Below, in pieces: positions 386 to 23,162 of a DNA stretch of 29,125 bases (within the stretch, counting starts at the first letter, position 1; each line of letters starts with the position of its first letter). Source of the DNA: an uncultured virus (IMG/VR IMGVR_UViG_3300022663_000092) (taxonomy: Duplodnaviria; Heunggongvirae; Uroviricota; Caudoviricetes); the IMG/VR virus record IMGVR_UViG_3300022663_000092, positions 62,001 through 91,125 of that record; one strand, 5' to 3'. Position numbers and translations under genes: made by a program. The notes below the pieces were generated by a model that saw only the letters and a program-made list of their open reading frames with translations, made no database searches and was not told where the DNA came from.

Positions 386-1853
386 GTCGGCCCCCTTTCT
401 TCGGTGCCATCTCGCCGATGAAGTTGTCGACCTCGGCGGTCTGCCCCGGCTGCTGGTAGTCGACCGACCGCCCGTGCCGAATCGACCCCTCCTCGGGCTT
501 CCAGTCGAACTCGACGGCAAGCGGCCACGGGCCGTGCCGTTGCTTGAGCACGAGCACCGCCAGCGACGTGTCGGGCACGTTCTTCCACAACGCCGGGCGG
601 TGCACCCCGAGGATCGTGTCGGGCACCTCGACCCACGCACCCGACCCCTTGAGGCCTTCGCGCGTCGGCTGCTTGTCCTCGCGCTGTTCAACGTCCTTGA
701 GGCGTTGCTGGTGCAACAGGATGCAATGGCACCGCGTTTCCTGCGCGATTGCCTGCTGCCGGTACAACGCCGCCTCCTCCTCGTCGGGGTCGAATTGACG
801 CACCGCCCGTCGCCACAGGTCGGCCACGAACACGTCGGCACCGGTGTCGGCAATGTAGGCGTGGATGAGGTCGAGGTTCTCGTCGTTGATGCCACGCTTA
901 CCCCGCTCCCGGCCGAACGGCAGCTCGAAGAACCGCACCCACTCGGCGAGCCGTTCGGCCTCGCCGACGACCGCATCGCGCTCCTCCTGCGTGATGGCCC
1001 CTTCGACGAACGCCGCCCGCGACAACCCGAGGGACTGGATCGACATGAGTTCGAGCGTCATGCGCGACCCCTGCTCCCATGCCCCGAACAGCACCCGGCG
1101 GCCCATGTTCGCCTGCGCGACCGCGATGGCCGTCGTGAACGTCGTCTTGCCACCGCCCGACAACCCCGTGATGACCGTGACTTGCCCCGGTGCCGCACCG
1201 GGCGTGAGCCGATGCCGCCCCGCGTTCGGGTGCCCGTCCTCGTACACGTCGAGGCCGTCGATGCCGTAGGGGAAGCACGCCACGCCGGTTCGCCGCCGGT
1301 CGATGTCGGCCGCCATCTCCTTGACCAGCTCGCGCGGGTCACGCAAGTACTTCAGCCCGGTCAGCCCGAACGATGCCGCGACCTGCCGCCCGAGCGCACG
1401 CACCCGGTCGGGGTCGGCCGTCGGGTCGCGCAACGCTTCGAGCAACGACCCGACCGGGCCGCGGGCCGCTTCAAGCCGCGTGCGGTCCCATTCCAGCATC
1501 TCGACGTGGTGCTTGAGGTTCGGCGGGCTCGCCGGGCGGGCCTCGACGAGCCGCACGAGGTAGTCGGCATCGACCGCACCGCCCGCGAGCTGTTGCACCG
1601 TCGCCGGGTCGAACTGCAACTGCCGCCGTTCGAGGTCGGCGATGACGCGCCATGCGTCGGCGTGCCCCTTGCCGACGAACGCATCGGGCGGAAGCCGCGT
1701 CACGAGCCACTTGCGCGCCTTCGGGTCGACGAGCGCCGCGGCAATCACCACCTGTTCGTTCACCGTGTCGTGGGGGATCTGCAACGCCGGGTCGGCCGCC
1801 GTTCGCCTCACGGATGATCGATCATCCGTGCTTGCCTCGCTTCGCCGCCTCAT
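372..1853 (-). CDS. dnaB: DnaB-like SF4 replicative helicase (493 aa)
   Basis: N-terminal EQVVIAAALVDP resembles the DnaB N domain; Walker A GLSGGGKT; H2 VFVADLW; H3 LLHQQR; H4 LKGSGAWVEVPD; KQRHGP arginine finger. ATG at 1853 has GGAGG upstream and an ATGA overlap with the previous stop. Confidence 0.88.
   Translation of the reverse strand: MRRRSEASTDDRSSVRRTAADPALQIPHDTVNEQVVIAAALVDPKARKWLVTRLPPDAFVGKGHADAWRVIADLERRQLQFDPATVQQLAGGAVDADYLVRLVEARPASPPNLKHHVEMLEWDRTRLEAARGPVGSLLEALRDPTADPDRVRALGRQVAASFGLTGLKYLRDPRELVKEMAADIDRRRTGVACFPYGIDGLDVYEDGHPNAGRHRLTPGAAPGQVTVITGLSGGGKTTFTTAIAVAQANMGRRVLFGAWEQGSRMTLELMSIQSLGLSRAAFVEGAITQEERDAVVGEAERLAEWVRFFELPFGRERGKRGINDENLDLIHAYIADTGADVFVADLWRRAVRQFDPDEEEAALYRQQAIAQETRCHCILLHQQRLKDVEQREDKQPTREGLKGSGAWVEVPDTILGVHRPALWKNVPDTSLAVLVLKQRHGPWPLAVEFDWKPEEGSIRHGRSVDYQQPGQTAEVDNFIGEMAPKKGGRRGKR
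1810..1829. repeat. 20-bp perfect palindrome ACGGATGATCGATCATCCGT, copy 1 (inside the 5' end of the DnaB-like gene)
   Basis: Exact match; extends to 22 bp (1809-1830). Confidence 0.95.
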
Positions 1854-2098
1854 TCGTTCACCTCCGTCGCCGATGCCGACGGCACCCGCGGCAATGTCCG
1901 GTCGTAGGGCAACACCCGCAGCGTCGTCTTGATGAGGTCGCTGCCGACAAGCTGTGCAAGTTCGATCGTGCCGCGGGTCGGCGACCGCCACCACTGCCAC
2001 CACCGCCAGACCTGCCACCACCGCGGTTCATGCACGACGAATAGCTCGCCGCGCGTGCCGCCGAGCACGAACCCGTCGAGTTGGTGCCGCCGGTTCAT
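1850..2098 (-). CDS. small Trp-rich hypothetical protein (82 aa)
   Basis: ATGA overlaps at both ends (2095-2098, 1850-1853), consistent with translational coupling. Confidence 0.65.
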   Translation of the reverse strand: MNRRHQLDGFVLGGTRGELFVVHEPRWWQVWRWWQWWRSPTRGTIELAQLVGSDLIKTTLRVLPYDRTLPRVPSASATEVNE

Positions 2099-2565
2099 CG
2101 GGCGTGCCCTCGCACGACATCAACGCGGTAGTCGGTGAGCATCGCCTTGCTGCCGAACTGCGCCCGCCACGTGAGCCGCCAATCGGTGTCACGCCCGGCC
2201 GTCGTCGACCGCTTCACCCGCGCCCACGACCACGCCATGAACTCGACGCACCGCTTCGCGTCGCCGCCGAACTCCCCCTTGACGAGCCGGTCAGCCGCAC
2301 CGATTGCAGCGAGCATCGTCTCCTCGGTGAACAGTTCGGCCGGTTCAACGTGGTAGATCTCGGTGTGCAGCCACACGTAAAGGGCGACGAGGTGCTTGCC
2401 CTTCGCCTCGGTCCAGTTCCCGGTACGCCGCATCTCCTCCATCGCCGGGGTCGCGTGCGCGATGATCTCGCGCGGGGTCGGGTGTCGCCGCTTTGACTTC
2501 GGCTTGACCGATGCGACCGCCGCATCGAGTACGTCGGCCGCGTCGGGGTACTTCAATCGCCGCAT
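2095..2565 (-). CDS. hypothetical protein (156 aa) in the replication operon
   Basis: Fills the gap between coupled neighbours; AAAGGGGG upstream; ordinary globular composition. Confidence 0.75.
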   Translation of the reverse strand: MRRLKYPDAADVLDAAVASVKPKSKRRHPTPREIIAHATPAMEEMRRTGNWTEAKGKHLVALYVWLHTEIYHVEPAELFTEETMLAAIGAADRLVKGEFGGDAKRCVEFMAWSWARVKRSTTAGRDTDWRLTWRAQFGSKAMLTDYRVDVVRGHAR

Positions 2566-2566
2566 G

Positions 2567-3100
2567 TCATCGCCCCCCTTTCATCGCCCGTGCGCCGTCG
2601 GCCGCCCGGCGCACCCGTTCGAGGTACGCTGGCAGCTTCTCGGCGAAGTCGGCGTCGGCGATGCGTTGCAGCTTCGCACGCACCCGCAACACCGCCTGCT
2701 CGACCGTCTCGCCGGGGCGCAACCGCGTCGTCGCCGTGTACGGGCCGACCTCGAACACGTGGAACTGCACTGGCGAGAACCCCTCCTTGCCCCACGTCAC
2801 CGTCACCGACTCGATGTCGGGGTCGTGGTCAACCGAATCGGCTCGCGCACGCCGCGCGGCGTCGGCCCGATGCAACGCATCGGCGACCTCGGCACACCGG
2901 GCGGGCGGTGCCGCGTCAAGGTACTCGGGCGGGGTCGGTGCCGCGTTCGCCGCCGGGCCGTTCGGCTCACCGTACCCGTGCCCGTTGCAACACGTCCACC
3001 CCGACCCCGGAGCGTGGAACTGAGGCGCACCGCAGTCAGGGCACCGATTCACCCCGCCCGCATCGGTTGTCGTTGCCGCCGCATCGCTTCGCCGCCTCAT
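2567..3100 (-). CDS. Zn-ribbon-containing hypothetical protein (177 aa)
   Basis: CPDC...WTCCNGH motif; ATG at 3100 with AAGGAGG upstream and an ATGA overlap with the SF2 helicase stop. Confidence 0.7.
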   Translation of the reverse strand: MRRRSDAAATTTDAGGVNRCPDCGAPQFHAPGSGWTCCNGHGYGEPNGPAANAAPTPPEYLDAAPPARCAEVADALHRADAARRARADSVDHDPDIESVTVTWGKEGFSPVQFHVFEVGPYTATTRLRPGETVEQAVLRVRAKLQRIADADFAEKLPAYLERVRRAADGARAMKGGR

Positions 3101-4641
3101 CGTTCGACCTCCTTCAGCCACTCCCGCGCATCAACCCATTCGTCGCCGTCACGTATGACGACCCGCCGATTCCACCGGCATAGATTCCGCAACGGCTCAA
3201 GACCGTACACCGCCCGGTCGAGCAGGTAGTAGATTCGTGCGCCTTGCTTGCCGGTTGCGTCATCGCGTCGGCACAACCGACCCCGCACTTGCTTGAAGAA
3301 CGAACGGCCGTCGCGCGAGTTCGCGATCGGCGAGCAGCACACCCCGACACCGACCGACGGTAGGTCGATGCCCTGCCCGATCGCCTGATAGGTGCCCGCC
3401 GCGGCACGCAACGACCCGTCGAGCAGCGCGTGCAACGTGCGGTTGTACTCGTCGTCGTCGCCACCGAGCATGAGCCCGCATCGAACATGGCGTGCCGACA
3501 GGTCGGCATCGAGCCGTCGGCAATGCTCGCGCCGGTGCGACATCATCACGATCTGCTCACCGGCCGCGACCTCCGATGCTGCAAGCTCGACCGATAGCGC
3601 GGCACGCCTCGGGTCGGTCATCATGTCCTCCACGAGCTTGTCGAACGCGAGCAACCGTTCCTTCACGAGCGACTGAGGCATCGGCACGTCGTCGTCGCGT
3701 GCCCGCTTCTCGGCATCGCGCACCCGCGCCTGTAGATCGTCGTACCAGTCCGACGTGAAGTCGGTCGGCACGACCCGCACCTCGACATCGTGCACGACCC
3801 CCTGCGCCACGAGGTCGTCCTGGTCAATGTCCACCGCGATGTCGCCGAACGCATCGTAGATGAGGAATTGCTTGCGATCCTTGCGCCGTTCGTCGGCCGA
3901 CACGCCGATGCGATACCGGGCGGGCAACCGGTCGATGCACTCGAAGAACGTCGACGCCGCGAACCGCTGAAGCTCGTCGGCGATGACAACCCCGAACGTC
4001 GACGCAATGCGCCCGGTGTGCTTCACGAGCGATTGCTGCATTCCGATCGTGAGCGGCCGAATCCGGTGCGTGCCACCGCCGATGATGCCGACCTCATCCT
4101 CGGTGAGCCCCAGTTCGGCGACCGCCCGGCGCACCCACTGGTCGAGCAACCCGCCGGTCCACACGATGACCAACGTCGGCAAGTCGAGCCGCGATGCGAG
4201 TGCAAGCATCGCCGTCGTCTTGCCCGAACCCGTCGGCGCACGCACGACGCAGTTCTGCACCCGCATCGCCTCCTCGACGATCGTCTCCTGGTAGTCGCGC
4301 AACACGACCCGATGTCGCGGGATGCCCCGCGGCCCGTCGCCGTCGATGCGGTTGTCGACGACACGCCGGGCGATGCCGAACTCCTCGAACACCGCACGCA
4401 ACCGACCGATGCCGCCGCGCGGGAACGTCATCCACTCGCCGTCGTACCGGCACGACGCGATAGTCTTCGGCTCCCGGTACAACGCCGGGCCTTTCAACCC
4501 GAGCCGCTTCAGCTTCTCGTGCATCGGGTTGTCGTGGGTGAACTCGACCCGCAACCGTTCGACGACCTCGGCCGGGAGGTCGGCCGTGCGAACACGCAAC
4601 CGGCTGTCCACTTCGATGATGGTCTGCATGCCACCCATCAT
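3097..4641 (-). CDS. superfamily 2 (ResIII/XPB/UvsW-like) helicase (514 aa)
   Basis: Q motif LRDYQ, Walker A APTGSGKT, motif II IADELQ, motif III SAD, motif V GQGIDLP, motif VI QVRGRLCR; GGGAG 7 nt before the ATG. Confidence 0.9.
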   Translation of the reverse strand: MMGGMQTIIEVDSRLRVRTADLPAEVVERLRVEFTHDNPMHEKLKRLGLKGPALYREPKTIASCRYDGEWMTFPRGGIGRLRAVFEEFGIARRVVDNRIDGDGPRGIPRHRVVLRDYQETIVEEAMRVQNCVVRAPTGSGKTTAMLALASRLDLPTLVIVWTGGLLDQWVRRAVAELGLTEDEVGIIGGGTHRIRPLTIGMQQSLVKHTGRIASTFGVVIADELQRFAASTFFECIDRLPARYRIGVSADERRKDRKQFLIYDAFGDIAVDIDQDDLVAQGVVHDVEVRVVPTDFTSDWYDDLQARVRDAEKRARDDDVPMPQSLVKERLLAFDKLVEDMMTDPRRAALSVELAASEVAAGEQIVMMSHRREHCRRLDADLSARHVRCGLMLGGDDDEYNRTLHALLDGSLRAAAGTYQAIGQGIDLPSVGVGVCCSPIANSRDGRSFFKQVRGRLCRRDDATGKQGARIYYLLDRAVYGLEPLRNLCRWNRRVVIRDGDEWVDAREWLKEVER

Positions 4642-4653
4642 GCCGCGGCTCCC

Positions 4654-4673
4654 ACGGATGATCGATCATCCGT
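4654..4673. repeat. 20-bp palindrome, copy 2 (abuts the RBS of the SF2 helicase)
   Basis: Exact match ACGGATGATCGATCATCCGT. Confidence 0.95.
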
Positions 4674-4823
4674 CACGGCATGACGGCACGCCTTCGCCCC
4701 TCATCAACCCGTCACCGGTCGACGCCGCGCACCGCGCGGCGGGCACAATCGCGAGGCCGCAGGCCGAGCGATTGTGCGAGAGATCAAGGGATCTCAGTAA
4801 CTCCCACCCGCGAACCGCCCCCT

Positions 4824-4853
4824 ACCCTACACGTAGCGGTTACGTTGGCGCAA
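4824..4853 (-). promoter_or_regulatory. putative sigma70-type promoter for the leftward replication operon
   Basis: Minus strand TTGCGC-18 nt-TAGGGT in the divergent intergenic region. Confidence 0.5.
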
Positions 4854-4891
4854 GACTGCCACAACGATTCGATGCGCGGGTCGCGCGGCGG

Positions 4892-4897
4892 TACACT
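4892..4897 (+). promoter_or_regulatory. -10 element of a putative leaderless promoter
   Basis: TACACT exactly 6 nt before ATG 4904; no SD sequence. Confidence 0.6.
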
Positions 4898-4903
4898 CGA
4901 CGC

Positions 4904-5653: not shown

Positions 5654-5654
5654 G

Positions 5655-6155: not shown

Positions 6156-6159
6156 CGGG

Positions 6160-6507: not shown

Positions 6508-6517
6508 CGCGTCCTCC

Positions 6518-7208: not shown

Positions 7209-8735
7209 TCACGTCCAGCCTACAACCATGTCGAACGCCGAAACCATCGCATCGTTCAACACGACCACGGTATCGGTCACGGCCGCCGACGCAACGTCAA
7301 TTCGCAACATGCAAGCTCGAAGTTCCTCAAGCTCGGGGTCGGCGATGATGGCGAACGCCCACACGGCTCCCCCGGCACGGTCGACGACCAGCGGCCCGAC
7401 TCGATCCAACCCCGGCACTTCGGCCGCCGTGATGCGGGCGAGCACCGTGCCGTCGGGTGCGACCTTTGCGATGTAGATCGCTGGCACTTCAAAAGCATAG
7501 CGATGCCCGGTGAACCACAGGTTGCCGTCCGCATCGGCATCGGCACCGCCCGACCACACCCCGATGTCGTCGCTCGCGACGATGCGGGTCACCACCATCG
7601 TCGACTGGTCGCACCGCAGGATTGCCGATTCCGTGCTCATAGCCCACGGGTCGCCGGGCTCCTGAATCCACAACGCCGCGTCGGTTCGCGATGTCGTCGC
7701 CGCCACCTGGGCTGGCATCCACATCCACTCCCACGCCGACGTGAAGTCGTGCCCGGTCGACTCCGCATCCTGCACCAACGCACCAGGGTCGACCCGCACG
7801 AACCGGGCCTGCGACGAACCGTTCGCTGGTATGTAGGCGATCGTGAATACCTTGCCGCCGACGACCGTGCACGTTATCGGCTGCGCCGGGAATCGGCCGA
7901 TCGTGATGGGCACCGATGCGTTCGGTGTGCCCGCTATCGGGTCAATCCGTTGCAGCTCGTAGGTGTCACCCCACGCAAAGTTCGTCTTCCACAAGCCACT
8001 CGACGTGTCACCGTACTCGACACCGGCCGCCCCGTGGGATTCGGGCGCAAACGGCCCGTCGTCGTAGATGGTGATCGTCCCCATCGCTTCGTCGGCCGGG
8101 GTTGCCGCGATGACGCCCGACTCGCGCCATCCCGCATCGGTCACCCATACCCGGTCGCCATCGAACGCGAGCGCCCACGGTCGGACGAAGTACTCGCCGA
8201 GCAGCGATAGGTCACGCAACGACGCAAGCGACCGCGCTTCGGTGTCGATGGCTCCGAGATACAACCCGAGACCAATCGGGCCGTCCCTCCCAAGCCATTC
8301 CGGCATACCGTCGGCGACCCCGAACGCAGCCAGCACCTTGTCGCCCTTCGGGGTCGCCTTGATGCGGTCGATGAGGCCGAACATCCTCGACATGGTGAAC
8401 CACACGAGCCGCGGCACGACCCTTTCTCGGCGGTGCAACGGCACCGGCGGAATGGGGTGCAGCAGCACGTGTGGTATCGGCTCGTTGAGGTCGGGCCGCA
8501 CCGGTGTCGCCACGCCCGACCGCGGCCACGACCGAGCTGCGATGATGCGGGATGCGTTCGACCGCACTTCGGCGTCGGTCGCCCCGATGATGGCGGCGAT
8601 GCGCGGCACGAGCACGTCGGGCAACCCCTGACGCCCCGAGTCGATGCGGTCGAACACGAACGGCGAGATACCAAGCACCTCGGCGACACGTTCGGGCCGC
8701 ATGCCGTAGGCCGCGAACAGCGACGCAAGGCTCAT
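7209..8735 (-). CDS. XRE-like HTH domain fused to a beta-propeller-like domain (508 aa)
   Basis: N-term YGMRPERVAEVLGISPFVFDRIDSGRQGLP...RIAAIIG; C-term repeated blades (LAFDGDRVWVTD, DADGNLWFTG, VVDRAGGAVW, xRIDP). ATG 8735 overlaps the upstream stop (ATGA). Confidence 0.7.
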   Translation of the reverse strand: MSLASLFAAYGMRPERVAEVLGISPFVFDRIDSGRQGLPDVLVPRIAAIIGATDAEVRSNASRIIAARSWPRSGVATPVRPDLNEPIPHVLLHPIPPVPLHRRERVVPRLVWFTMSRMFGLIDRIKATPKGDKVLAAFGVADGMPEWLGRDGPIGLGLYLGAIDTEARSLASLRDLSLLGEYFVRPWALAFDGDRVWVTDAGWRESGVIAATPADEAMGTITIYDDGPFAPESHGAAGVEYGDTSSGLWKTNFAWGDTYELQRIDPIAGTPNASVPITIGRFPAQPITCTVVGGKVFTIAYIPANGSSQARFVRVDPGALVQDAESTGHDFTSAWEWMWMPAQVAATTSRTDAALWIQEPGDPWAMSTESAILRCDQSTMVVTRIVASDDIGVWSGGADADADGNLWFTGHRYAFEVPAIYIAKVAPDGTVLARITAAEVPGLDRVGPLVVDRAGGAVWAFAIIADPELEELRACMLRIDVASAAVTDTVVVLNDAMVSAFDMVVGWT

Positions 8736-10354
8736 GGGCCGAGGTCCCACCCGATGACATCGAGGCCGCCGTTCACCCGCGTCGCGACACCGGCTGACGG
8801 GAAGTAGTTCACCGTCAGGTTGCGGTTGACCGGGGCGAGGCCGGGCCACGTCGGAATGAGCGGCACATCGACCTCGAACACGTCGGAGTAGATGCCGAAG
8901 ACATCGAACATGCCCGTCTCCGCGCCCGCGTCGATGGCGCACACGTTGTCGGTCGTCACGCCAAACCGCTTCATGTAGACCTTGCGCGAGAACGAGAACG
9001 CCGCACCGGGCGCACCGGTGAAGTTGCAGTAGACCTTCAGCCGCACCCGCCGCGCGTTCGCGGGGTGCGCGAAGTTGCCGAACAGGACGTAGGAGTCGGT
9101 GTTGATGTTCGTGCCGAACGGGGCGACGAAGATGCCGTTGCTGAGGCCGCCGACGAGAATCATGCGCCCGTCGCTCACGGCACCGCGCGGCACGCCACCG
9201 CCGTCGCACCACCCCGCCATGACGACACCCGCGAACTGCGTCGACAGCCCGAGGCCGGTCGAGGTCGGCATCGTGATTGCGAGCAACGGCGTGCCCGCGT
9301 AGTTCGGTGCCACCATCGTCGCGACCGGGATGCCCCGCATCGGGCCGGGCACCCGCCCGAGCCCGAAGATGCTGTTCTCGGTGTACCGCACCCACCGGGG
9401 CAACCCGGCGGGGAAGCAGGCGTAGAGATACCACGGCATCGACGGCACCGGGGCGAACCCCGGCCCCTGGTTCTCCGGGTTGAGAATGTCGACCCACGGC
9501 AGGTCGCCCGACCCCATCGCCGCGGTCGGTGTGCCCTTCGCGATCGTGCCCGCGGCCCGGTAGTAGCCGACGTTGAAGTCCACCGCACCCGACACGTTCA
9601 ACTCGACGCTCGGGTTGGTCCACTCGTCGGCATACACGAGGCACCGTTCGCGCTTCTGAAGCAGCGACCCGGCATGGAACGGTTGCACCGCACGGTCGAC
9701 GATGAGGGGGCGCACGTCCCAGAACGTCACCGTGTCGACGCTCGCGCTGCCCGCCGGAACCGATGCGACCGCGAGCGGCAGCCATCCCGTCGCGTTGCCG
9801 GGGTAGCCACCGCCCGCAACACCCGACCGAACGCGATACTGCAACCGGCCCGCCACCACCTTGTCGACGAGGTTCGGCGTGAACAGGCCCGTGGCGGGGT
9901 CGAAGATATCGCGGTTGTCCTGCTCCTCGACCAGTTCGATCGGCTGGCACTCGATGACATCGATCCGAACCCCGCCACCGCCGTTCGCCGGGATGACGAG
10001 GGAACCGATGGCACTGATGCCCGCGTCGAAGATGACCTTGCTCGGGTCGTCGTCGGCGTTCGGGGTTGCGTCGGGGAAGTAGGCGACCATCTCGCCGGGC
10101 GTGATGGTCACCGAATCGGTGCCAATCTGCGGCACGACCATCAACCCGCCGATGACATCGGCGAGCAGCGGGGCCGTGATGGCTGCCGGTTCGATCGCGT
10201 ACCCCGCCGACGTGTCGACGATGTACTGGTCGGAGAAGAACCGCCGATGAAACGCCGACCGGTCTGCCGCGATGAACGCCTGCTCGCGGTTGAAGTCGGT
10301 GGAGATCAGCCGTTCCCTCGTGTTGTACTGCATGCGCTTGTGACCGCTCGACAT
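8732..10354 (-). CDS. putative tail fibre / baseplate-attached protein (540 aa)
   Basis: Follows the wedge genes; N-terminal RERLISTDFNREQ resembles fibre-anchor motifs; beta/Gly-rich. Confidence 0.6.
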   Translation of the reverse strand: MSSGHKRMQYNTRERLISTDFNREQAFIAADRSAFHRRFFSDQYIVDTSAGYAIEPAAITAPLLADVIGGLMVVPQIGTDSVTITPGEMVAYFPDATPNADDDPSKVIFDAGISAIGSLVIPANGGGGVRIDVIECQPIELVEEQDNRDIFDPATGLFTPNLVDKVVAGRLQYRVRSGVAGGGYPGNATGWLPLAVASVPAGSASVDTVTFWDVRPLIVDRAVQPFHAGSLLQKRERCLVYADEWTNPSVELNVSGAVDFNVGYYRAAGTIAKGTPTAAMGSGDLPWVDILNPENQGPGFAPVPSMPWYLYACFPAGLPRWVRYTENSIFGLGRVPGPMRGIPVATMVAPNYAGTPLLAITMPTSTGLGLSTQFAGVVMAGWCDGGGVPRGAVSDGRMILVGGLSNGIFVAPFGTNINTDSYVLFGNFAHPANARRVRLKVYCNFTGAPGAAFSFSRKVYMKRFGVTTDNVCAIDAGAETGMFDVFGIYSDVFEVDVPLIPTWPGLAPVNRNLTVNYFPSAGVATRVNGGLDVIGWDLGP

Positions 10355-10360: not shown

Positions 10361-10390
10361 AGCCTACCACCCGTCGGGGCGGGGTGTCAG
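10361..10390 (-). promoter_or_regulatory. putative leaderless promoter
   Basis: CTGACA-18 nt-TAGGCT-6 nt-ATG(10354). Confidence 0.65.
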
Positions 10391-10394: not shown

Positions 10395-10414
10395 ACGGAT
10401 GATCGATCATCCGT
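10395..10414. repeat. 20-bp palindrome, copy 3 (intergenic)
   Basis: Exact match; 4 nt upstream of the -35 element. Confidence 0.95.
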
Positions 10415-10436
10415 GGCGGGCGTTTCACGTGGAACC

Positions 10437-12056: not shown

Positions 12057-13165
12057 CACACCACCGTCACGTTGGCAAGGGTCGTGCGCAGGGTCATGCC
12101 CGGCGCAGGCACGAGGTCACCGGTCGGGGCAACGACCGCCGATTCGGTCACGATGAGGCCTTGGTTCTGGAACCGTTGCAGCACGACGTAGATCTGCGCT
12201 CGCGATAGGGTCTGGTTGACCGCGAGCGAGTTGATGAACGCCACGACCGCGTTGCGCACGGCCTCGGTCACGGTCGTCGTGTCGACGTTCGCCGCGAACG
12301 TGAGCTTGAGCGCCACGTCGACGATCTGCGGCATCGACAGTGCCGTGATGACCGCGATGCCGCAGGCCCGATACTCCTCCAACTCCGACCGCACGAACGC
12401 CCCGAGCGCGGCCGACGCCACGCCCGACGAGTCGGCGATGTAGAGCTGCACGATGCGAGCCGGTCGCGACAACGAATCGATCGCCTCGTAGGCCTGTGCC
12501 GACACGACACCCTCGACCGCGAGCGCCCCGAACTCGATCGCCCCCTTCGTGCCGCGGCGGGCTGTCTGCCAGAAGTTTCGGATTCGATTCCGGTAGTCAT
12601 CATCCTCCTCGACCGGTTCGCCGCCCGCGGTCTTCGCGTCGTTGTTGACCTGCAACGTCGTGTCGAACAGGGCCGACGGCTTGTCAATCTTGCGGATCTG
12701 GTTCGCCCCGACTTGGTACTCCTTGCCCGCGAGCACCGCCCGCACGTCGCACGTTGCCTCCAGCGAGGCGGGTGCGAAGGTCGCCGTCGTTGTCGTCACG
12801 TACTCGATGCCGGTGAGCGACACGAGCTTCGTGCCGATGGGCACGACCCCGCCACCGCCCGTGATGGCGGTGCGGAAGAACCGCACCGACCCGACCGCCG
12901 CGGCCGCACCCTTGCGCGGCAGTTGGTACTTGTCGAACCCGTACCGGTCGAGGTCTTCCTCCTCGGCACCGTTCAACGTGAGCGCCCGAATCCGGTCGAC
13001 GAGGTGCCGCGCGACCGCGTGCGCCATGTAGGACGACGACCCGACGAAGATGTTGATGTCGGAGCCCTCGACATCGACTTGCGCGGGGTCGATGCGCTTC
13101 GCCCGCGTCGCGACGTATCGCCGACCGATGCGGTAGAAGTCGAACCTCGTGAGAATCTCGGCCAT
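12056..13165 (-). CDS. baseplate J-like wedge protein (369 aa)
   Basis: AEEEDLDRYG, RKGAAAAVGSVRF, VPIGTKL, GGEPVEEDDDYRNRI and RGTKGAIE are hallmark P2 gpJ/Mu gp47 motifs. Confidence 0.88.
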   Translation of the reverse strand: MAEILTRFDFYRIGRRYVATRAKRIDPAQVDVEGSDINIFVGSSSYMAHAVARHLVDRIRALTLNGAEEEDLDRYGFDKYQLPRKGAAAAVGSVRFFRTAITGGGGVVPIGTKLVSLTGIEYVTTTTATFAPASLEATCDVRAVLAGKEYQVGANQIRKIDKPSALFDTTLQVNNDAKTAGGEPVEEDDDYRNRIRNFWQTARRGTKGAIEFGALAVEGVVSAQAYEAIDSLSRPARIVQLYIADSSGVASAALGAFVRSELEEYRACGIAVITALSMPQIVDVALKLTFAANVDTTTVTEAVRNAVVAFINSLAVNQTLSRAQIYVVLQRFQNQGLIVTESAVVAPTGDLVPAPGMTLRTTLANVTVV

Positions 13166-13176: not shown

Positions 13177-14079
13177 TCACACCGGGCTCGTCGCGTCGAA
13201 CGGCACGTCGACCGCGACCGGCTTGTTGCTGTACTTGGTCACGGCACGTACTTCGAGCCAGAACAGGTCGGGGCGGTTGTCGTCGCGTCGGAACCGACAC
13301 GACACGTCGCGCGTCTCGGGCTCCTGCCGGATCTGCGCTTCGGCATCCGACGTGAGCGCGTCGCGCACGCCGGGCCGCCCGAGCTGCTTCACTTGGTCGG
13401 GCAACCCAACCCCGTAGGTCGGCAGCCACGCGAACTTGCCCTTGCGCGTCATGCACCGGCGGAACACGCGCTTGCGGTAGCTGTCCACGCCGTCGTCGAA
13501 CGCGAGGTCGCCCTGAGCATCGACCGGGATGGTGCCGAGGATGAGCGAGTCGGTCGTGTTCGGCAACGGGTCGAGCATGCCCGCGCGGTTCTGCGGGTTA
13601 GCGATGTCCTTCGACGACACGATGAGGTCGACCCGCGGTTGCATGAACCCGCGCGACAGCCCATCGAACAGCCGCGAGGCCGATGCCGGGTCGAGCAGTT
13701 GCCCGCCGACCGCACGCAGGCCGTTGCATGCGACCCGGTACACCGACGGCCACGGAGAGAACGACCGGTCAACCGTCAGGTCGAGCATGGTGCCGCGCGA
13801 CCCGGCGACCTCGGCGATCTCGACCGCGGCGGGGAACACCGGCCGCGGTTGCGCCCCGTCGGCACCGGTCGAGGTCGGGTCGGTCGCCACCGAGTAGCGT
13901 TCGACCGACGCCGCATCGCCGCTTTCGAGCGTGCCCGTGAACAGCGGGGCCGCGTTGAACTCAAGCCGCACGACGTTCTCGCGCACGGCCATCGCTCGCA
14001 GCAGTTGCAACGCGACGATGCCGCCGCCACCCCATGGGATGAGGCCCCACGGACCACCGCCCCATCCGGCACCGCTCAC
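13177..14079 (-). CDS. gp25/gpW-like baseplate (sheath initiator) protein with an N-terminal Ig-like extension (300 aa)
   Basis: C-term RRCMTRKGKFAWLPTYGVGL...IRQEPE matches the gp25/W pattern; directly upstream of gpJ; GTG 14079 overlaps the upstream stop (GTGA). Confidence 0.7.
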   Translation of the reverse strand: MSGAGWGGGPWGLIPWGGGGIVALQLLRAMAVRENVVRLEFNAAPLFTGTLESGDAASVERYSVATDPTSTGADGAQPRPVFPAAVEIAEVAGSRGTMLDLTVDRSFSPWPSVYRVACNGLRAVGGQLLDPASASRLFDGLSRGFMQPRVDLIVSSKDIANPQNRAGMLDPLPNTTDSLILGTIPVDAQGDLAFDDGVDSYRKRVFRRCMTRKGKFAWLPTYGVGLPDQVKQLGRPGVRDALTSDAEAQIRQEPETRDVSCRFRRDDNRPDLFWLEVRAVTKYSNKPVAVDVPFDATSPV

Positions 14080-14855
14080 GGCCGCACCCTTACGTCGAAC
14101 GCGAAGTCGTCGTCGGTGAGCACCCCGAACGCATCGGCACGTTCGATTCGGAAGCCGTTGACCGTCTCGTTGTAGACCGTGCACGAGCCGCCCGTGTTGC
14201 GGGCCGTCGCCACCACGGCATAGTTCGCGTTGGGCATGGGCGCGATGAACGCGATGTCGACGATGCCCGGCGACACGTAGGTGACGAACCCGATGTTGAG
14301 CGACGATGCGAGCGAGGCCGGGCCTCCCGGCGGCAGGATGACGCGCCCCCATGCTGGCGATGCACCGACGACCCCGCGGCGGATCACCTCAAACCACCGA
14401 TACCACTCGCGCGACCACCCCTCGGCGTTGCCCGTCGGGTCGATGACATCGGGCACGTTGTGCTCGACCGTCTCTTGGAACGCAGGCACCCGCCGCGGTA
14501 GCTGTCCGGGGTCAAGCGCAAGCACCGCACCCGCGTAGAACGTGATACGCGCAACGTCGTCGGCCGACGCCCCGAGCCCCGCACCCGAATCGACGGCAAG
14601 CTCGACGTGATACGTGCCCTCGACATCGATCGGAGCGAACAACGTCGCCGCGGCTGTCGGGGTCGCGAGCAGCGACGTTGCCCGCACGCCCGCGTTGATG
14701 TCGATGGGCCGGTGGATGATGCGCCACAGGTAGGCGAAGAACGGGCCGCCGACCGATGAAAGCGTCACCGGTTGCCCGAGTTCGAGGTCTTCCCGCGCGA
14801 ACCCCGGCACGCCCGGTGGTCGCGTCAACTGGTCGATGGTGATCTGGACGGCCAT
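14076..14855 (-). CDS. putative virion protein with a PKD-like N domain and fibre-like C domain (259 aa)
   Basis: YLWRII..P and GTYHVELAVD (PKD-like); AWGRV...GIVDIAFIAPMPNANYAVVAT resembles fibre C-terminal beta domains. Confidence 0.55.
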   Translation of the reverse strand: MAVQITIDQLTRPPGVPGFAREDLELGQPVTLSSVGGPFFAYLWRIIHRPIDINAGVRATSLLATPTAAATLFAPIDVEGTYHVELAVDSGAGLGASADDVARITFYAGAVLALDPGQLPRRVPAFQETVEHNVPDVIDPTGNAEGWSREWYRWFEVIRRGVVGASPAWGRVILPPGGPASLASSLNIGFVTYVSPGIVDIAFIAPMPNANYAVVATARNTGGSCTVYNETVNGFRIERADAFGVLTDDDFAFDVRVRP

Positions 14856-14861: not shown

Positions 14862-14867
14862 AGTCTA
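14862..14867 (-). promoter_or_regulatory. -10 element of a putative leaderless promoter
   Basis: TAGACT-6 nt-ATG(14855); no recognisable -35. Confidence 0.55.
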
Positions 14868-14898: not shown

Positions 14899-14918
14899 AC
14901 GGATGATCGATCATCCGT
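14899..14918. repeat. 20-bp palindrome, copy 4
   Basis: Exact match; overlaps the last base of the stop codon of 14918..15214. Confidence 0.95.
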
Positions 14919-15214
14919 CAGGTGTCGGCGTCGAATGGGTCGGGGTCCGACGTGCCGACACGGCCACCGCCGAACCCGAACTCGGCGTCGATGGGGTTCG
15001 ACAGGTCGCACTTGAGCCCGAGGAAGAAGCTGAACGTCGGCGGAAACGGGAACGGCGGGAACTTGAACTTGAAGCTCAGGTTGAAGTTGAACACCGGCGG
15101 GAACTGGAACCCGCAGATCGACGCCCCGCTCGGCGATGGCTCGAACGAGAACGACGCATCGACCGCGGCCTGTGCCGCCGGGTCGGGTGCATCGGGGGGA
15201 GGCGGGAACCCCAT
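14918..15214 (-). CDS. Pro/Phe-rich small hypothetical protein (98 aa)
   Basis: Starts 3 nt after the upstream stop; TTC/AAG/CCG codons fit the high-GC usage of the window. Confidence 0.6.
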   Translation of the reverse strand: MGFPPPPDAPDPAAQAAVDASFSFEPSPSGASICGFQFPPVFNFNLSFKFKFPPFPFPPTFSFFLGLKCDLSNPIDAEFGFGGGRVGTSDPDPFDADT

Positions 15215-17000: not shown

Positions 17001-17002
17001 GG

Positions 17003-18739: not shown

Positions 18740-18743
18740 CGGG

Positions 18744-20030: not shown

Positions 20031-20080
20031 GCCGACCTCCCGTCGTCAATGCGCGGCCGGGGTCGTCGGGTAGCAGTCCG

Positions 20081-21061: not shown

Positions 21062-21087
21062 TGCGCACCTCGTCAGTTCCTTCGGCG

Positions 21088-21117
21088 AGGCTACCACGCC
21101 GCCCCGCGTTCATCCAA
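21088..21117 (-). promoter_or_regulatory. putative promoter for the Cys-rich gene
   Basis: TTGGAT-18 nt-TAGCCT (preceded by TGG), followed by a short leader containing GAGG. Confidence 0.5.
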
Positions 21118-21126
21118 CCCCGTCGG

Positions 21127-23100
21127 TCACGTACCAAACGGGCTCGTGGTGATGGCCTGCAACCGGTTCTCGACAACGCGGGCGATGTCCCGCTCGAACA
21201 CGATCGCAACCCGGTCGGGGTCCTGGTCCCTGAAGTTCTGCTCGATCTTGAATGTCGCCGACCCGATTGACACCTTCGGGGCGGCTGGCTTCCCCTTGTC
21301 GCCCTTCGCCTTGTCCTTCGATGCGGCACCCTCAAGCTGCTTCGCGAGTTCGTCGAGTTCGGCCGACTTGCCCTTGATCATATTCGCGAGGCTGTCCATC
21401 GCGTCACCGGTCAACGCCGTCGAATTGAGGAACGCCGCTTGTAGCTCCTTGTTCTTCACGAGCACGTTCGCGATGTAGACCGCGACCGCCTCGTTGTGCG
21501 TGTTGATGGCCCCCGTGAACCCGGTCGACAGCTTCTCGACCGCCGGTCCCATGTCGACCGTCGATAGGTCGACCCCGGCCTGCCGCAGGTTGTTGAACAC
21601 CGCGGCCATCTTGTCGAACTGCTCGACCTGTGCCCGCGCGGCCCGATGCGCGGCCCACGTCGCGTCGGCAACCTCGCCTATCTGCCGGGTGTTCATCCCG
21701 GCCTCCTCGGCCCACTTGATCATCGCCGCCCGGCGGTCGTTGAACGAATCGATCTCCTGCTTCGTCCACTCGCGCAGCATCGTGTTCTGGTCGTTCCGCA
21801 TGCCCTTGAACATCTCAGCTACAGCGGCCGCGTTCTTCGCGTCCTCGCTCGTCAGGCCGCCCTCGTCGATGAGCTTCTTGGCCTGCCATGCCGCGGCCCC
21901 GACACCCGCGACCGCGAGGGTGAACGCCCCGAGCGCGGCCGCCGCACCCGCGGCACCGGCACCACCCGCCGCGATGCCGAGGGCGGGCACACCCGACGCC
22001 GCAAGGCTCGTCACGCCCCGACCGACATCGACGGCCGCACCGGCAATCGGGACCGCCGTCTTCGCCCCGTAGATGAGGGCAATCTCGGTCTTGTGCGCGA
22101 GGATGAACGTCACGACCTCCTTCGCGAACTTCCACGCATCGACGATCGCATCCTTGATCTCGACCTGATGCTCCTTGATCCACTTGAACCCCTCGCGGAT
22201 CGATTCACCGGCCGCGGTCACGGCCTTCGACACGTCGCCCGACATCGCCTTCGCGAACTCCTCAACTTGGTCGCGCGACCGCTTCATCCACTCGACGAGC
22301 CGCTTCAGTTCGGGCATCAACGCCCGCAACAACGGCTCGCCTAGCTTTTCCTTCGCGACCTCCCACGCAGTGTCGAGGGATTGCACCATCTGCTTGAGCG
22401 ACGGTTCGGCCTTGCCCATCGACCCCGCAAGCTGGTCGAGCCCGGTCGCGAGCGCCTTCGTGCGTTGCTCCTCGGTCATCTGCGCCCACAGGGCGGCCGC
22501 TTTCTTCGTGTTATCGCCGAAGATGCCCGTCGTTTGCAGGAGCTGGAATAGTTGCCCGCGGGTGCGCAGGATGCCCTCACCCATCATGCCGAACTCGGTC
22601 GCGACCGCTGACACGTCCATGCCCATGACGCCCGCGATCGTCGCCATCTTGCCGATCTGGTCCTTCGCCGACGCAACCCCGGCATCGGTCGCCCCGGTCA
22701 ACGTGAGCAGTTGCCGGAACCCTGCCTCGATCTGGTCGCCCGCGACCCCGGCGTTGATGGCAATCTCATCGAGCGAGTCACCGAGCGCGTTCGCGTTGTC
22801 GTAGGCCCGCGCCCATGACGACCCCTGCGCGGTCATGATCAACGCCGCGACCGCGTTATCGGCAGCCTGCCCGGCCGCCGCGGCGTCGAGGAACGACTTG
22901 CCGAAGTTGTAGACCGAGTGAATCGCGGGCATGAGGTTCACGGCCGCGAACGTCGACAGCATGTTGCCGAACGCCGACGCACCGGCGTGCGCCTGCTGCT
23001 CCGCTGCCGCCGTCTCCTTGAACCCCGACTTGATCTGGTTGAGCGCCGACGATGCGCGGTCATCGAGGGTCAGCGTGGTCCTGACGTTGACATCGGACAT
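21127..23100 (-). CDS. tail tape measure protein (657 aa)
   Basis: N-term LTLDDRASSALNQI, Ala/Gly-rich helical composition, one hydrophobic segment; follows the chaperone pair. Confidence 0.85.
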   Translation of the reverse strand: MSDVNVRTTLTLDDRASSALNQIKSGFKETAAAEQQAHAGASAFGNMLSTFAAVNLMPAIHSVYNFGKSFLDAAAAGQAADNAVAALIMTAQGSSWARAYDNANALGDSLDEIAINAGVAGDQIEAGFRQLLTLTGATDAGVASAKDQIGKMATIAGVMGMDVSAVATEFGMMGEGILRTRGQLFQLLQTTGIFGDNTKKAAALWAQMTEEQRTKALATGLDQLAGSMGKAEPSLKQMVQSLDTAWEVAKEKLGEPLLRALMPELKRLVEWMKRSRDQVEEFAKAMSGDVSKAVTAAGESIREGFKWIKEHQVEIKDAIVDAWKFAKEVVTFILAHKTEIALIYGAKTAVPIAGAAVDVGRGVTSLAASGVPALGIAAGGAGAAGAAAALGAFTLAVAGVGAAAWQAKKLIDEGGLTSEDAKNAAAVAEMFKGMRNDQNTMLREWTKQEIDSFNDRRAAMIKWAEEAGMNTRQIGEVADATWAAHRAARAQVEQFDKMAAVFNNLRQAGVDLSTVDMGPAVEKLSTGFTGAINTHNEAVAVYIANVLVKNKELQAAFLNSTALTGDAMDSLANMIKGKSAELDELAKQLEGAASKDKAKGDKGKPAAPKVSIGSATFKIEQNFRDQDPDRVAIVFERDIARVVENRLQAITTSPFGT

Positions 23101-23106
23101 GAGGGA

Positions 23107-23136
23107 AGCGTAGCGCCGGGCCGCACCGCCCGGCAA
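23107..23136 (-). promoter_or_regulatory. putative leaderless promoter for the tape measure gene
   Basis: TTGCCG-18 nt-TACGCT-6 nt-ATG(23100). Confidence 0.6.
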
Positions 23137-23142
23137 CCGCCG

Positions 23143-23162
23143 ACGGATGATCGATCATCCGT
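23143..23162. repeat. 20-bp palindrome, copy 5 (extends to 26 bp, 23140-23165)
   Basis: Exact match; intergenic between the chaperone extension and tape measure. Confidence 0.95.

Follow-up and report, generated by a model that had tools for sequence, protein, structure and literature searches.

The 20-bp palindrome that occurs five times in the window (the whole stretch of 29,125 nucleotides analysed, which makes up the final third of a virus record of 91,125 bp) belongs to a set of sites that spans the genome and whose sequence is strongly constrained, and with moderate confidence we read it as the two-fold-symmetric duplex-DNA site of a phage-encoded dimeric protein that would set transcription-unit boundaries and promoter activity. 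Direct support for the set comes from the number of sites, their invariance, placement and conservation, and from the lineage-specific replacement of their motif at conserved junctions, and the phage-wide network proposed in an earlier note on this DNA thereby gains indirect support. The palindrome would punctuate a one-directional gene array, in which nearly all genes lie on the minus strand, and the bound protein would most likely set the boundaries as a roadblock or insulator while also modulating the promoters that adjoin the palindrome, whereby one protein could control the replication, head and tail modules.

A scan of the window returned the five exact copies that the earlier note had located, against a chance expectation of 0.01 and with none of 100 shuffles reaching five matches (mean 0.01), and no match beyond these five was found at up to three mismatches. 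The flanks of the copies differ and target-site duplications are absent, as had likewise been observed. Counted over the full record, as the note had advised, there are 17 exact copies and one variant with two mismatches, and the mismatch spectrum shows 17 sites at zero, none at one, one at two, none at three or four and one at five. The sites are spread regularly over the whole genome at about one per 5 kb, and their invariance covers all 20 positions including the core, GATCGATC, every occurrence of which in the window falls within one of the five copies.

The earlier note placed the copies in intergenic gaps except for one inside the N-terminus of the DnaB-like protein, and while the gaps stand, copy 1 by our gene model abuts the DnaB start. 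The third-position GC signal is lacking upstream of this copy and present downstream, DnaB and its G007 orthologue align collinearly from the first residue onward, and the most likely start is a GTG (1811-1809) that overlaps the palindrome's final two bases. With copy 1 thus probably outside the DnaB coding region, every copy in the window lies between genes or against a gene start (Table 1). Genome-wide, our own gene calls put 11 of the 18 sites between genes, two at gene starts and five within genes, and these 11 fall in a non-coding fraction of just 6-8% of the genome (binomial P about 1e-8). The five intragenic copies share one reading frame (TDDRSSV), and some of these in-frame copies occupy linker regions, including one in the phage's own sigma-factor gene. 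The usual place of the palindrome is past a stop codon and ahead of the next promoter or ribosome site. TANNNT 5-8 nt ahead of the start codon is found at 10 of 115 minus-strand gene starts (at 6 or 7 nt; background 0.7%), and five of these ten starts have a palindrome 24-43 nt upstream, ending 40-43 nt ahead of the ATG in four cases. At three promoters the palindrome overlaps the -35 zone, one promoter-like motif has it just downstream, and a second start-associated motif, GCGGCATGATG, is present in 10 copies on one strand. Not all of this favours a DNA site. The position relative to promoters is varied (about -52, overlapping -35, or downstream), most sites of the early/replication region have no recognisable promoter close by, and among the seven lineages discussed below, on crude gene calls of our own, the upstream stop codon is no more than 5 nt away at 29 of 65 intergenic sites, while just one of 64 abuts the next start. 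This stop-codon anchoring counts against the DNA-site reading, since a 3'-end RNA element would show the same.

Table 1. Palindrome copies, neighbouring genes and promoter-like motifs in the window, with the candidate reader gene
Feature	Window position	Genome position	Strand	Remark
Palindrome copy 1	1810..1829	63810	.	20 nt past the stop of the 82-aa ORF; final two bases are part of the likely DnaB GTG start
Palindrome copy 2	4654..4673	66654	.	Upstream of superfamily-2 helicase gene; followed on the downstream side by 7 nt, GCGGCATGATG and ATG
Palindrome copy 3	10395..10414	72395	.	TGA 22 nt before, ATG 40 nt after
Palindrome copy 4	14899..14918	76899	.	Shares its first base with the A of the upstream TGA; ATG 43 nt on
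Palindrome copy 5	23143..23162	85143	.	Upstream TGA 9 nt before, ATG 42 nt after
DnaB-like replicative helicase gene	372..1811		-	Pfam DnaB and DnaB_C, PHROG 19; likely GTG start overlaps end of copy 1
82-aa ORF	1850..2098		-	TGA 20 nt upstream of copy 1 along transcription
Superfamily-2 DNA helicase gene	3097..4641		-	Downstream of copy 2; Pfam ResIII and DEAD, PHROG 16
GCGGCATGATG	4636..4646		-	Candidate -10 region of second promoter class
540-aa gene, family not recognised	8732..10354		-	Tail region, downstream of copy 3
TAGGCT, -10-like hexamer	10361..10366		-	6 nt ahead of ATG at 10354; leaderless look
CTGACA, -35-like hexamer	10385-10390		-	Accompanies TAGGCT
540-aa gene	10437..12059		-	Its stop precedes copy 3
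Baseplate-J gene	12056-13165			Immediately upstream of 540-aa gene 10437..12059
Tail-fibre-like gene	14076..14855		-	Downstream of copy 4; PHROG 3484
TAGACT, -10-like hexamer	14862..14867		-	6 nt ahead of ATG at 14855
98-aa gene	14918..15214		-	TGA stop overlaps first base of copy 4
657-aa gene, family not recognised	21127..23100		-	Tail region, downstream of copy 5
TACGCT, -10-like hexamer	23107..23112		-	6 nt ahead of ATG at 23100
TTGCCG, -35-like hexamer	23131-23136		-	Accompanies TACGCT
103-aa gene	23172..23483		-	TGA 9 nt upstream of copy 5
Candidate reader, 92-aa Fis/NtrC-type helix-turn-helix protein		60739-61017		Outside window; encoded after DnaB-primase

Neither an artefact nor a repeat of the host accounts for the palindrome. 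The earlier note had allowed for an assembly artefact, for a REP-like repeat of the host and for a lack of conservation in related phages, but independent assemblies carry the palindrome at the same places, two lone copies were found in 185,579 reference species genomes, 23 of 24 metagenome matches are this phage, and the sites are intact in the relatives compared. Set against the flanks, as the note had proposed, 17 site-by-relative comparisons gave no change in 340 palindrome bases, whereas the flanks, diverged by up to 16%, showed 165 changes in 5102 bases, from which 11.0 would be expected in the palindrome (Poisson P about 2e-5, with comparisons that are not phylogenetically independent). 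Both changes of the two-mismatch variant are non-compensatory, and it is kept as that variant in G001 and G003. The constraint therefore appears to act on sequence rather than structure, since the mismatch spectrum is all-or-none, the bases are unchanged and the variant is non-compensatory. What is conserved is not the stability of a hairpin; between lineages the free energy of the core varies from -5.3 to -26 kcal/mol, the weakest value coming from a variant G013 copy, and stands at -10.5 kcal/mol in this phage, whose genome is 67% GC.

Six related lineages each have a different invariant palindrome of 16-24 bp, often at the same gene junctions, and in a table of nine genomes by seven motifs every genome carries its own motif and none of another lineage's. 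A site precedes the terminase gene in this phage (G000), G007, G006 and G012 and the major capsid gene in G000, G011, G007 and G008, and sites also recur before the MuF-like protein, helicase and SbcC. The sigma gene has a site at the same linker position in G000 and G011, six of the nine G011 sites are upstream of orthologues with a site in G000 too, and the palindromes of these two have the outer ACGGA/TCCGT in common while 8 of the inner 10 bp differ. In six of the seven lineages the palindrome is even and perfect, so that the loop of a would-be hairpin is self-complementary, and since a hairpin has no need of such a loop the palindromic centre favours reading as DNA. The notion of a dimeric binder, which the earlier note drew from the perfect dyad, is thus indirectly supported, as symmetry through the centre fits it better than a hairpin. 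G007, the remaining lineage, has 8-bp arms that do not vary in any of its 16 sites around a 6-bp centre that does, as would be expected for half-site reading. Complete turnover of the motif at about 17 sites by point mutation is, however, hard to explain under any operator model.

The best candidate for the palindrome reader is a 92-aa Fis/NtrC-type helix-turn-helix protein. Its score against Pfam HTH_8 is 27.5 bits (cut-off 22), and against the PDB its profile matches NtrC-family DNA-binding domains and a designed HTH_8 peptide and gives weak matches to the nucleoid protein Fis (E = 0.004) and the chromosome-anchoring RacA (E = 8e-4). Its AlphaFold2 model is all-helical (pLDDT 88), with the NtrC4 DNA-binding domain and Fis as best, though weak, Foldseek matches (E > 1). 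Homologues follow DnaB-primase in G007, G011, G012 and G013, and the recognition helix differs between G000 and G011; such synteny and lineage-level co-variation, on which the proposed link to the palindrome depends, would nevertheless be expected of any lineage-specific protein. We infer that the palindrome is read as DNA, by a dimer and by this Fis/NtrC-type protein, with an effect on transcription.

The RNA hairpin that the earlier note offered as an alternative is still alive, being unlikely but with a real chance of holding. An 8-bp stem with a 4-nt loop would end each upstream message as a terminator, 3'-end protector or processing signal, and a phage RNA-binding protein may recognise the hairpin, which would explain the invariant sequence. 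This would agree with the stop-codon anchoring seen in seven lineages and with the fact that sites in long gaps usually keep beside the stop; furthermore the hairpin is more stable than folds of shuffled sequence (z about -2.5), and the window lacks canonical terminators that might end these units instead (6 terminator-like matches against 10.5 in shuffles). In G012, 6 of 23 sites lie within longer site-specific inverted repeats (permutation P = 0.003), so that complementary flanks lengthen their stems, and two of these sites carry A/T tracts resembling a two-way intrinsic terminator; in this phage site-specific flank pairing is absent (permutation P = 0.98). A U tract is however missing after all 18 copies, the stem is 50% GC with a core as weak as given above, unlike an intrinsic terminator, and a scan for hairpins followed by T runs did not pick up the palindrome sites. 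Four of seven folded sites have weak, AT-rich stems for GC-rich genomes (-5.3 to -10.5 kcal/mol), the self-complementary loop of six lineages is needless for a hairpin, and there is no compensatory variation, the sole variant breaking two pairs and yet being conserved. Copies are moreover found inside five genes, and one separates a promoter-like motif from the gene it serves, positions in which constitutive termination would do harm, and many stop-to-start gaps, at about 35-60 nt, are too short for a new promoter. It is decidedly unlikely that the palindromes are primarily architectural or anchoring sites, at which a ParB-, RacA- or Fis-like protein would serve DNA condensation, localisation, replication or packaging and affect transcription only secondarily. 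The even genome-wide spacing and the RacA and Fis matches of the candidate reader would suit such sites, and the authors of the Cluster O study discussed below, in the part of it drawn on here, thought a transcriptional role of their repeats unlikely (PMC4351075), but tight placement at junctions and beside -10 boxes is not needed for architecture alone, and the concentration of sites in non-coding DNA likewise speaks against it. Two ParB-N-domain proteins are encoded as well, but their genes look like methylase modules, both overlapping a methyltransferase gene and matching the fused ParB-methyltransferase family PHROG 498, and no ParA partner was found for them. Systems of the parS/KorB type have a ParB-family reader with its own helix-turn-helix and usually a ParA partner. 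The parS-like loading site named in the earlier note is thus conceivable but weak, given the overlap of both ParB-domain genes with a methyltransferase gene.

That the palindrome is a selfish REP-like miniature element, copied and pasted around the phage genome and tolerated where genes end and in protein linkers, seems very unlikely, even though its identity is all-or-none without graded degenerate copies, the five clearly intragenic copies keep one frame, an additional copy borders an inserted gene cassette in one relative where this genome has an 8-nt remnant, and copy-and-paste is the easiest account of complete motif turnover between lineages. REP/BIME elements are 20-40-bp palindromes found mostly downstream of ORFs between co-directional genes and sometimes within genes (Di Nocera et al. 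2013, PMC3733652), a placement that the present palindrome shares, but they belong to the host chromosome, are present there in high copy number and carry on one side an unpaired GTAG or CGTC tag. The element described here is in contrast phage-only and fully symmetric, its motif being multi-copy in no reference genome or non-phage metagenome contig, and Pfam scans of the called ORFs gave no HUH/Y1 or other transposase that could be linked to it. GTAG-family REPs have a linked RAYT transposase. Furthermore no clean presence/absence polymorphism was observed, the palindrome being intact wherever the alignment ran through a site, lineages with unrelated motifs have sites at the same junctions, one of them inside the sigma gene, and the sigma-gene linker is no longer with the site than in lineages without it. 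A methylation-sensitive switch, in which the tandem GATC core would be read via Dam-type methylation by a phage methyltransferase, is scarcely credible. The core does have the form GATCGATC, and at least three DNA methyltransferases are encoded by Pfam, with a fourth ORF matching a PHROG methyltransferase family only, but GATC is absent from the palindromes of G011, G012, G013, G007 and G008, which make up five of the six related lineages, and the seven share no methylation motif. GATC is neither avoided nor special in the window (120 observed, 88 expected) and the invariance is not confined to the core. The methylation sensitivity that the earlier note considered is not supported, this core being particular to the present lineage.

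At the DNA level the phage matched none of the phage records of INPHARED, and its terminase match is just 26%, to Streptomyces phages. Dispersed repeats of a similar kind are on record for actinophages of Clusters O and EG, and the following comparison extends to those parts of the two reports drawn on here. The 17-bp repeat of Cluster O mycobacteriophages, 5'-TGTTCGGNNNCCGAACA, was proposed as the site of a dimeric protein, its function not being established (Cresawn et al. 2015, PMC4351075). Likenesses include many dispersed copies with invariant arms (dozens in this non-temperate actinophage group), mixed placement (about 40% intergenic in Cluster O, the others near 5' ends or intragenic), GC-rich flanks, absence of the repeat from host genomes, retention in close relatives and the presence of ParB-like and methylase genes (PMC4351075). 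The sequences are nonetheless unrelated, the Cluster O repeat having a variable 3-bp spacer in place of a 20-bp perfect palindrome, most Cluster O sites are away from promoters whereas the late-region sites here are tied to leaderless promoters, and lineage-specific motif replacement at conserved junctions is not described in those parts of the report (PMC4351075). The 18-bp inverted repeat of Microbacterium Cluster EG phages, 5'-GATCAACCNNGGTTGATC (Jacobs-Sera et al. 2020, PMC7302621), likewise occupies short intergenic gaps, in 8-10 copies typically 14-22 bp upstream of start codons, a geometry approached by 18 of 64 intergenic sites here (12-25 nt from site to start), and it is similarly conserved amid diverging DNA in phages lacking repressor and integrase. 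The EG copies are however fewer, restricted to one genome end and built around a spacer of 2 bp, they come from an unrelated group of phages, and the function of the repeat is not established there either (PMC7302621). As in the Cluster O and EG cases, the present palindrome is a dispersed invariant repeat, enriched at junctions and conserved, that is no bacterial repeat and comes without an integrase or repressor match.

Stoperators have been described for mycobacteriophage L5 and Cluster A/CA phages (PMC13313380). We think that their mechanism may be the one most similar to that of the palindrome. Stoperators are many copies of one short site, located in short intergenic regions or overlapping gene ends, through which one phage protein stops transcription along the genome, and they are asymmetric 13-14-bp sites in one orientation relative to transcription, recognised by a temperate phage's immunity repressor. 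The present site is perfectly palindromic, and among the 118 called ORFs neither Pfam nor PHROG scans revealed an integrase or immunity-repressor family, which is an absence of match only but speaks against an immunity network of the repressor/stoperator type to which the earlier note had drawn a parallel. A symmetric site occurring about 12-25 times per replicon is known from the conserved inverted repeats to which the phiC31 repressor binds, the KorB operators of plasmid RK2 and the ram sites of RacA, and in each case one dimeric protein reads the repeated site with global effect. Of these, phiC31 is a temperate phage, KorB a clamp of the ParB family and RacA a chromosome anchor.

An unlikely but far-reaching extension of the DNA-site reading is that the clade uses a private 'address code', in which each lineage would have its own 16-24-bp palindrome at conserved junctions and a fast-evolving private Fis-like reader, the sites being rewritten in concert with a change of specificity by an as yet unrecognised copy-and-paste or conversion mechanism. 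If this were true, one protein would control all modules of the phage in a manner unusable by, and immune to, co-infecting relatives, and the system would constitute a lytic-phage analogue of immunity specificity as well as a barrier to mosaic exchange.

The five exact copies of the palindrome ACGGATGATCGATCATCCGT claimed in the earlier note are indeed present in the window, with none further at up to three mismatches, and on inspection their flanks are unrelated and free of target-site duplications, as had likewise been described. Matches to ACGGATGATCGATCATCCGT average 0.01 in 100 dinucleotide-preserving shuffles of the window, and all 5 window occurrences of the octamer GATCGATC fall within palindrome copies. 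In the whole record there are 17 exact copies and a single two-mismatch copy. The mismatch spectrum of the genome is all-or-none, with 17 sites at 0 mismatches, one each at 2 and at 5, and none at 1, 3 or 4. The exact 20-mer is furthermore present in 38 stretches from 9 other viral contigs (the 32 among the matches listed all align over 283-634 bases of this genome, with identities of 86.7-100%) and in 24 stretches among 241 million metagenome records, 23 of them from this phage or close relatives and one unrelated. Genomes of 185,579 species hold 2 lone occurrences, which is about the number expected by chance since 596 Gb were searched. The copy at 14899 is spanned by one assembled contig of run X3, and neither Rfam, searched at gathering scores, nor a tRNA scan gave a match in the window. 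Five close relatives (G001-G005) are collinear with the genome, with indels, and the 20 bases are unchanged in 17 of 17 site-by-relative comparisons aligned through a site. Changes in the 150-base flanks amount to 165 in 5102 positions, reaching 16% at one site, and the palindrome shows 0 changes in 340 bases against 11.0 expected from the flanks (Poisson P about 2e-5, the comparisons being non-independent and G001, G003 and G004 nearly identical where they overlap). The two-mismatch copy, which precedes the terminase gene, is kept as a variant in G001 and G003, and its two changes are non-compensatory. The earlier note had allowed for a host REP-like repeat, an assembly artefact or a lack of conservation in relatives, none of which is borne out, and we conclude that the palindrome is a genuine cis element, specific to the phage and under strong selection.

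The record, of which the window is bases 62001-91125, is rated complete at 91,125 bp and is 67% GC. Its two ends share a 127-bp direct repeat, which may be no physical terminal repeat but an overlap from circular assembly. Our own codon-usage caller, the calls of which are crude with uncertain start sites, gave 118 ORFs, which together make up 92% of the genome and lie on the minus strand in 115 cases. Pfam and PHROG scans of the called ORFs gave no match to an integrase or repressor family, and 6.2 kb of the window found no match in a DNA search of 50,697 phage records (INPHARED). The terminase protein is at best 26% identical to those of Streptomyces phages; together with base composition and promoter type, these weak phage matches suggest an actinobacterial host. 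The pairs of ParB-N-domain and methyltransferase genes look like split ParB-methylase pairs, and a Tad2-like anti-Thoeris domain and an S-adenosylmethionine-decarboxylase-like protein are encoded as well.

Features of the phage record (window positions unless marked as genome or G001)
Feature	Position	Strand	Basis
Palindrome ACGGATGATCGATCATCCGT, five copies	1810-1829, 4654-4673, 10395-10414, 14899-14918, 23143-23162
Second motif GCGGCATGATG next to the copy at 4654	4636-4646	-
GTTTCACGTGGAAC	10422-10435	+
DnaB, superfamily-2 helicase, baseplate J, tail-fibre-like protein	in window		Pfam/PHROG
Primase, family-B polymerase, SbcCD-like nuclease, DinG-like helicase	outside window		Pfam/PHROG
Terminase, MuF-like protein, scaffold, major head protein, lysins			Pfam/PHROG
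Three DNA methyltransferases			Pfam
Fourth methyltransferase ORF			PHROG methyltransferase family only
Two methyltransferase genes, each overlapped at its start by a ParB-N-domain gene	genome 44754-45991 and 19424-20918
Sigma-70-family protein, region 2 detected	genome 57991-58665	-	Pfam/PHROG
Two helix-turn-helix proteins, HTH_8 (92-94 aa) and HTH_31 (110 aa)			Pfam/PHROG
Candidate reader (the HTH_8 protein)	genome 60739-61017
Second Fis-like helix-turn-helix paralogue	genome 33629-33856	+	local jackhmmer E = 5e-5
26-bp perfect palindrome AGCATCATGCCGCGCGGCATGATGCT	genome 26490-26515
Interval from major head gene to C39-peptidase lysin	genome 2067-2196; G001 28138-28550

Reading the sites along the minus strand, that is in the direction of transcription, our gene calls place 11 of the 18 between genes, two abutting gene starts (DnaB and SbcC) and five clearly within genes, and the intergenic share compares with a non-coding genome fraction of 6-8% (binomial P about 1e-8). 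Distances from the upstream stop are 20 (1810), 22 (10395), -1 (14899) and 9 nt (23143), no gene was called close upstream of the copy at 4654, and the internal TGA of the palindrome serves as stop for two genes elsewhere in the genome. The five intragenic copies share a frame reading TDDRSSV, with the third-position GC signal running on at both sides, and one of them lies in frame in the inter-domain linker of the sigma-family protein, after region 2.

Several sites are in addition found close to promoter-like boxes. A TANNNT box just before the start codon is the look of leaderless actinobacterial promoters, and such a box lies 5-8 nt before the start codon in 10 of 115 minus-strand gene starts (all ten at 6 or 7 nt), the background being 0.7% of all ATG/GTG. 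In five of these ten the palindrome or its variant is found 24-43 nt upstream of the start codon, among them the sites at 10395, 14899 and 23143, where 40-43 nt separate the end of the palindrome from the ATG and include a -35-like hexamer; if transcription begins at the ATG, the site centres would lie near -50 to -54. At the MuF-like and terminase genes the distance from the end of the site to the -10 box is 7 or 11 nt, and at 4654 the site ends 7 nt before a second motif, GCGGCATGATG. This motif occurs ten times between genome positions 22309 and 66646, on the transcribed strand only and with an ATG 5-6 nt later in 6 of 10. It is confined to the early/replication part of the genome (22-67 kb), the structural part being dominated by TANNNT leaderless starts, and may represent the class of promoter that the phage's own sigma-family protein uses. 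At genome position 42498 a palindrome lies 13 nt downstream of GCGGCATGATG, the remaining sites have a ribosome-binding site alone or nothing recognisable close by, and four leaderless-type starts are without a palindrome. A consensus sigma-70 promoter scan gave 0 matches in 20 kb, that consensus being unlike the TANNNT-type boxes found here. In the distant lineage G007 a box similar to GCGGCATGATG, GCGGCATCAT, precedes a gene. One of the four leaderless-type starts without a palindrome lies in the interval from the major head gene to the C39-peptidase lysin, which holds a promoter and only an 8-nt palindrome remnant; in G001 the same interval contains a full palindrome and a leaderless-type promoter together with an additional gene of about 100 aa. 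Two copies of the second motif in inverted orientation form the 26-bp palindrome, which coincides with the start of a 103-aa ORF lying just upstream of the terminase gene.

Searches with terminase and DnaB led to six more distant lineages, their terminases being 39-42% and their DnaB proteins 43-67% identical; G007 has 46 of the 118 proteins in common with this genome (G000), in the same order. Each lineage has nearly all its genes on one strand and its own dispersed palindrome, and the motifs of other lineages were found, at up to two mismatches, in none of the genomes compared. Six of the nine sites in G011 are upstream of orthologues that have an upstream site in G000 too. In the sigma gene, G011 carries its own palindrome at the linker position of G000, and this linker is no longer in G000 and G011 than in G007 and G012, which lack a site there. 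A 12-bp palindrome in locus L060 was discarded as a lineage element, being a tandem coding repeat; the true G007 element was obtained from the whole contig.

Lineage-specific palindromes and the genes that they precede
Lineage	Contig	Palindrome	Copies	Site before
G000	91 kb, complete	ACGGATGATCGATCATCCGT	17 exact + 1 variant	terminase, major head, MuF-like, helicase, SbcC
G011	72 kb	ACGGAAACACGTGTTTCCGT	9, none at 1-3 mismatches	major head, MuF-like, SbcC
G012	92 kb, complete	CCACCGCACGGCGCCGTGCGGTGG	23-26, depending on stretch counted	terminase, helicase
G013	41 kb	CGCAATACGTATTGCG	10-11
G007	82 kb, complete	GACCAAAA-N6-TTTTGGTC	16 (arms invariant, centre variable)	terminase, major head, helicase
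G006	43 kb	GATYGAAAAACGTTTTTCRATC	4-5	terminase
G008	23 kb	GACGGCGCCCGGGCGCCGTC	5 + 1 variant	major head, MuF-like

A candidate reader of the palindrome is a 92-aa HTH_8 protein encoded after DnaB and primase. It scores above the Pfam cut-off, and a profile of the protein and its relatives matches, among solved structures, Fis (E = 0.004), RacA (E = 8e-4) and NtrC-family DNA-binding domains. Its AlphaFold2 model is confident (pLDDT 88) and all-helical, and Foldseek gave no match to it at E <= 0.001, the nearest folds being the NtrC4 DNA-binding domain and Fis at E > 1. Homologues, often two in tandem, are found at the same position after DnaB-primase in G007, G011, G012 and G013, and were missed by tblastn because of their strong divergence. 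The protein likewise found no match by tblastn in phage records and matched itself only in a search of 5.8 billion proteins, the sensitivity of which is limited by word sharing. The predicted recognition helix is SRWQLYRIVRAANL in G000 and SRRQLHRMIACANL in G011, the nearest distinct lineage, and the two palindromes share the outer ACGGA/TCCGT, with differences at 8 of the 10 inner positions. These changes would fit co-evolution of helix and palindrome, although any lineage-specific protein would show likewise. A DUF3850 protein was rejected as reader, since G001 lacks most of the gene and yet keeps the sites, and the two ParB-domain proteins look like methylase partners; the sigma-family protein is a possibility. 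The second Fis-like paralogue has a weak coding signal, is the sole plausible opposite-strand ORF, within a 468-nt gap in the minus-strand calls, and falls in a segment missing from G001.

The mechanism that we consider most likely, with our confidence about evenly balanced, is that the palindromes serve, as duplex DNA, as boundary and promoter control sites read by a protein; each would be recognised by a symmetric dimer. For such a site speak the invariance of all 20 positions, which is without compensatory variation, the symmetry unbroken through the centre in 6 of 7 lineages, the invariant arms and variable centre of G007, and the use of one motif per genome. The dimeric binder and genome-wide network proposed in the earlier note are thereby supported indirectly. 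A role as RNA hairpin, which we regard as rather unlikely, could account for the position of intergenic sites over the seven lineages: by our gene calls the upstream stop is no more than 5 nt away in 29 of 65 and the next start in only 1 of 64, and in long gaps the site mostly remains adjacent to the stop; this asymmetry is however partly forced by the room required for a ribosome site or -10 box. The window furthermore holds no canonical terminators, and in G012 a site-specific complementary flank of 5-10 bp extends 6 of 23 sites (P = 0.003), two of the six having A/T tracts like two-way terminators. The same flank-pairing test was negative in G000 (permutation P = 0.98) and in five other lineages, no copy is followed by a T run, and copies occur within genes as well as between a promoter-like motif and its gene. 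Nor is hairpin strength conserved, since the core folds with -5.3 to -26 kcal/mol across lineages (-5.3 being a variant G013 copy) and with -10.5 kcal/mol in G000, a genome of 67% GC, and in the 6 of 7 lineages where the palindrome is perfect through its centre the would-be loop is itself self-complementary. On balance the evidence for a DNA site was weighed more heavily. Sites 24974 and 50874 of G012 (L098/L099) share a near-identical longer cassette flanked by A and T tracts and resembling a two-way terminator, and by eye the sequence after its site 67520 resembles a tRNA.

A purely architectural site seems quite improbable to us, and a selfish REP-like element even more so. REP elements (PMC3733652) are alike in placement, but differ in host copy number, tag and transposase. 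The GACG...CGTC ends of some copies and lineages were considered as CGTC-tagged REPs, an idea that was dropped since the tags of REPs are unpaired and sit at one side, and since the flank preference here is only partial. The proposed methylation-sensitive GATC switch is very improbable indeed and was not borne out, since the motif is without GATC in 5 of 6 other lineages. The parS-like site and the hairpin, both named in the earlier note as alternatives, stay among the rivals. GTTTCACGTGGAAC, one mismatch from the chromosomal parS core, lies between a stop codon and the palindrome and is the sole such site in the genome; it is conserved in G002 and G005 and absent from the distant lineages. 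Cutting of the palindromes by SbcCD was set aside as too speculative for 20-bp repeats.

Dispersed invariant palindromes are described from a few clusters of cultured actinophages, with no function assigned to them (PMC4351075, PMC7302621). Closest to the present case are a 17-bp repeat in mycobacteriophages of Cluster O, which has 34 copies with invariant arms and no assigned function, and for which the authors doubted a role in transcription initiation (PMC4351075), and the 18-bp repeat of Microbacterium Cluster EG, with 8-10 copies placed 14-22 bp before start codons (PMC7302621). Stoperators, which are described in PMC13313380, act in the way proposed here for the palindrome, but they are asymmetric and come from temperate phages. 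New are the clade itself, the site length and perfect symmetry, the all-or-none mismatch spectrum, the wholesale replacement of the sequence with positions kept in seven lineages, and the syntenic candidate reader.

The same kind of element is found across seven lineages of one uncultured clade, and it stands out by its genome-wide sequence replacement, by positions kept even inside a sigma-factor gene and by a syntenic, fast-diverging candidate reader. The seven natural site-protein pairs offer a testable system for swapping specificity, and pose the evolutionary puzzle of how about 10-25 sites change jointly with their reader. Should the sites prove to be protein-dependent transcription boundaries, they would provide compact, orthogonal regulatory parts for high-GC bacteria and would also help to mark transcription units in the annotation of uncultured phages.
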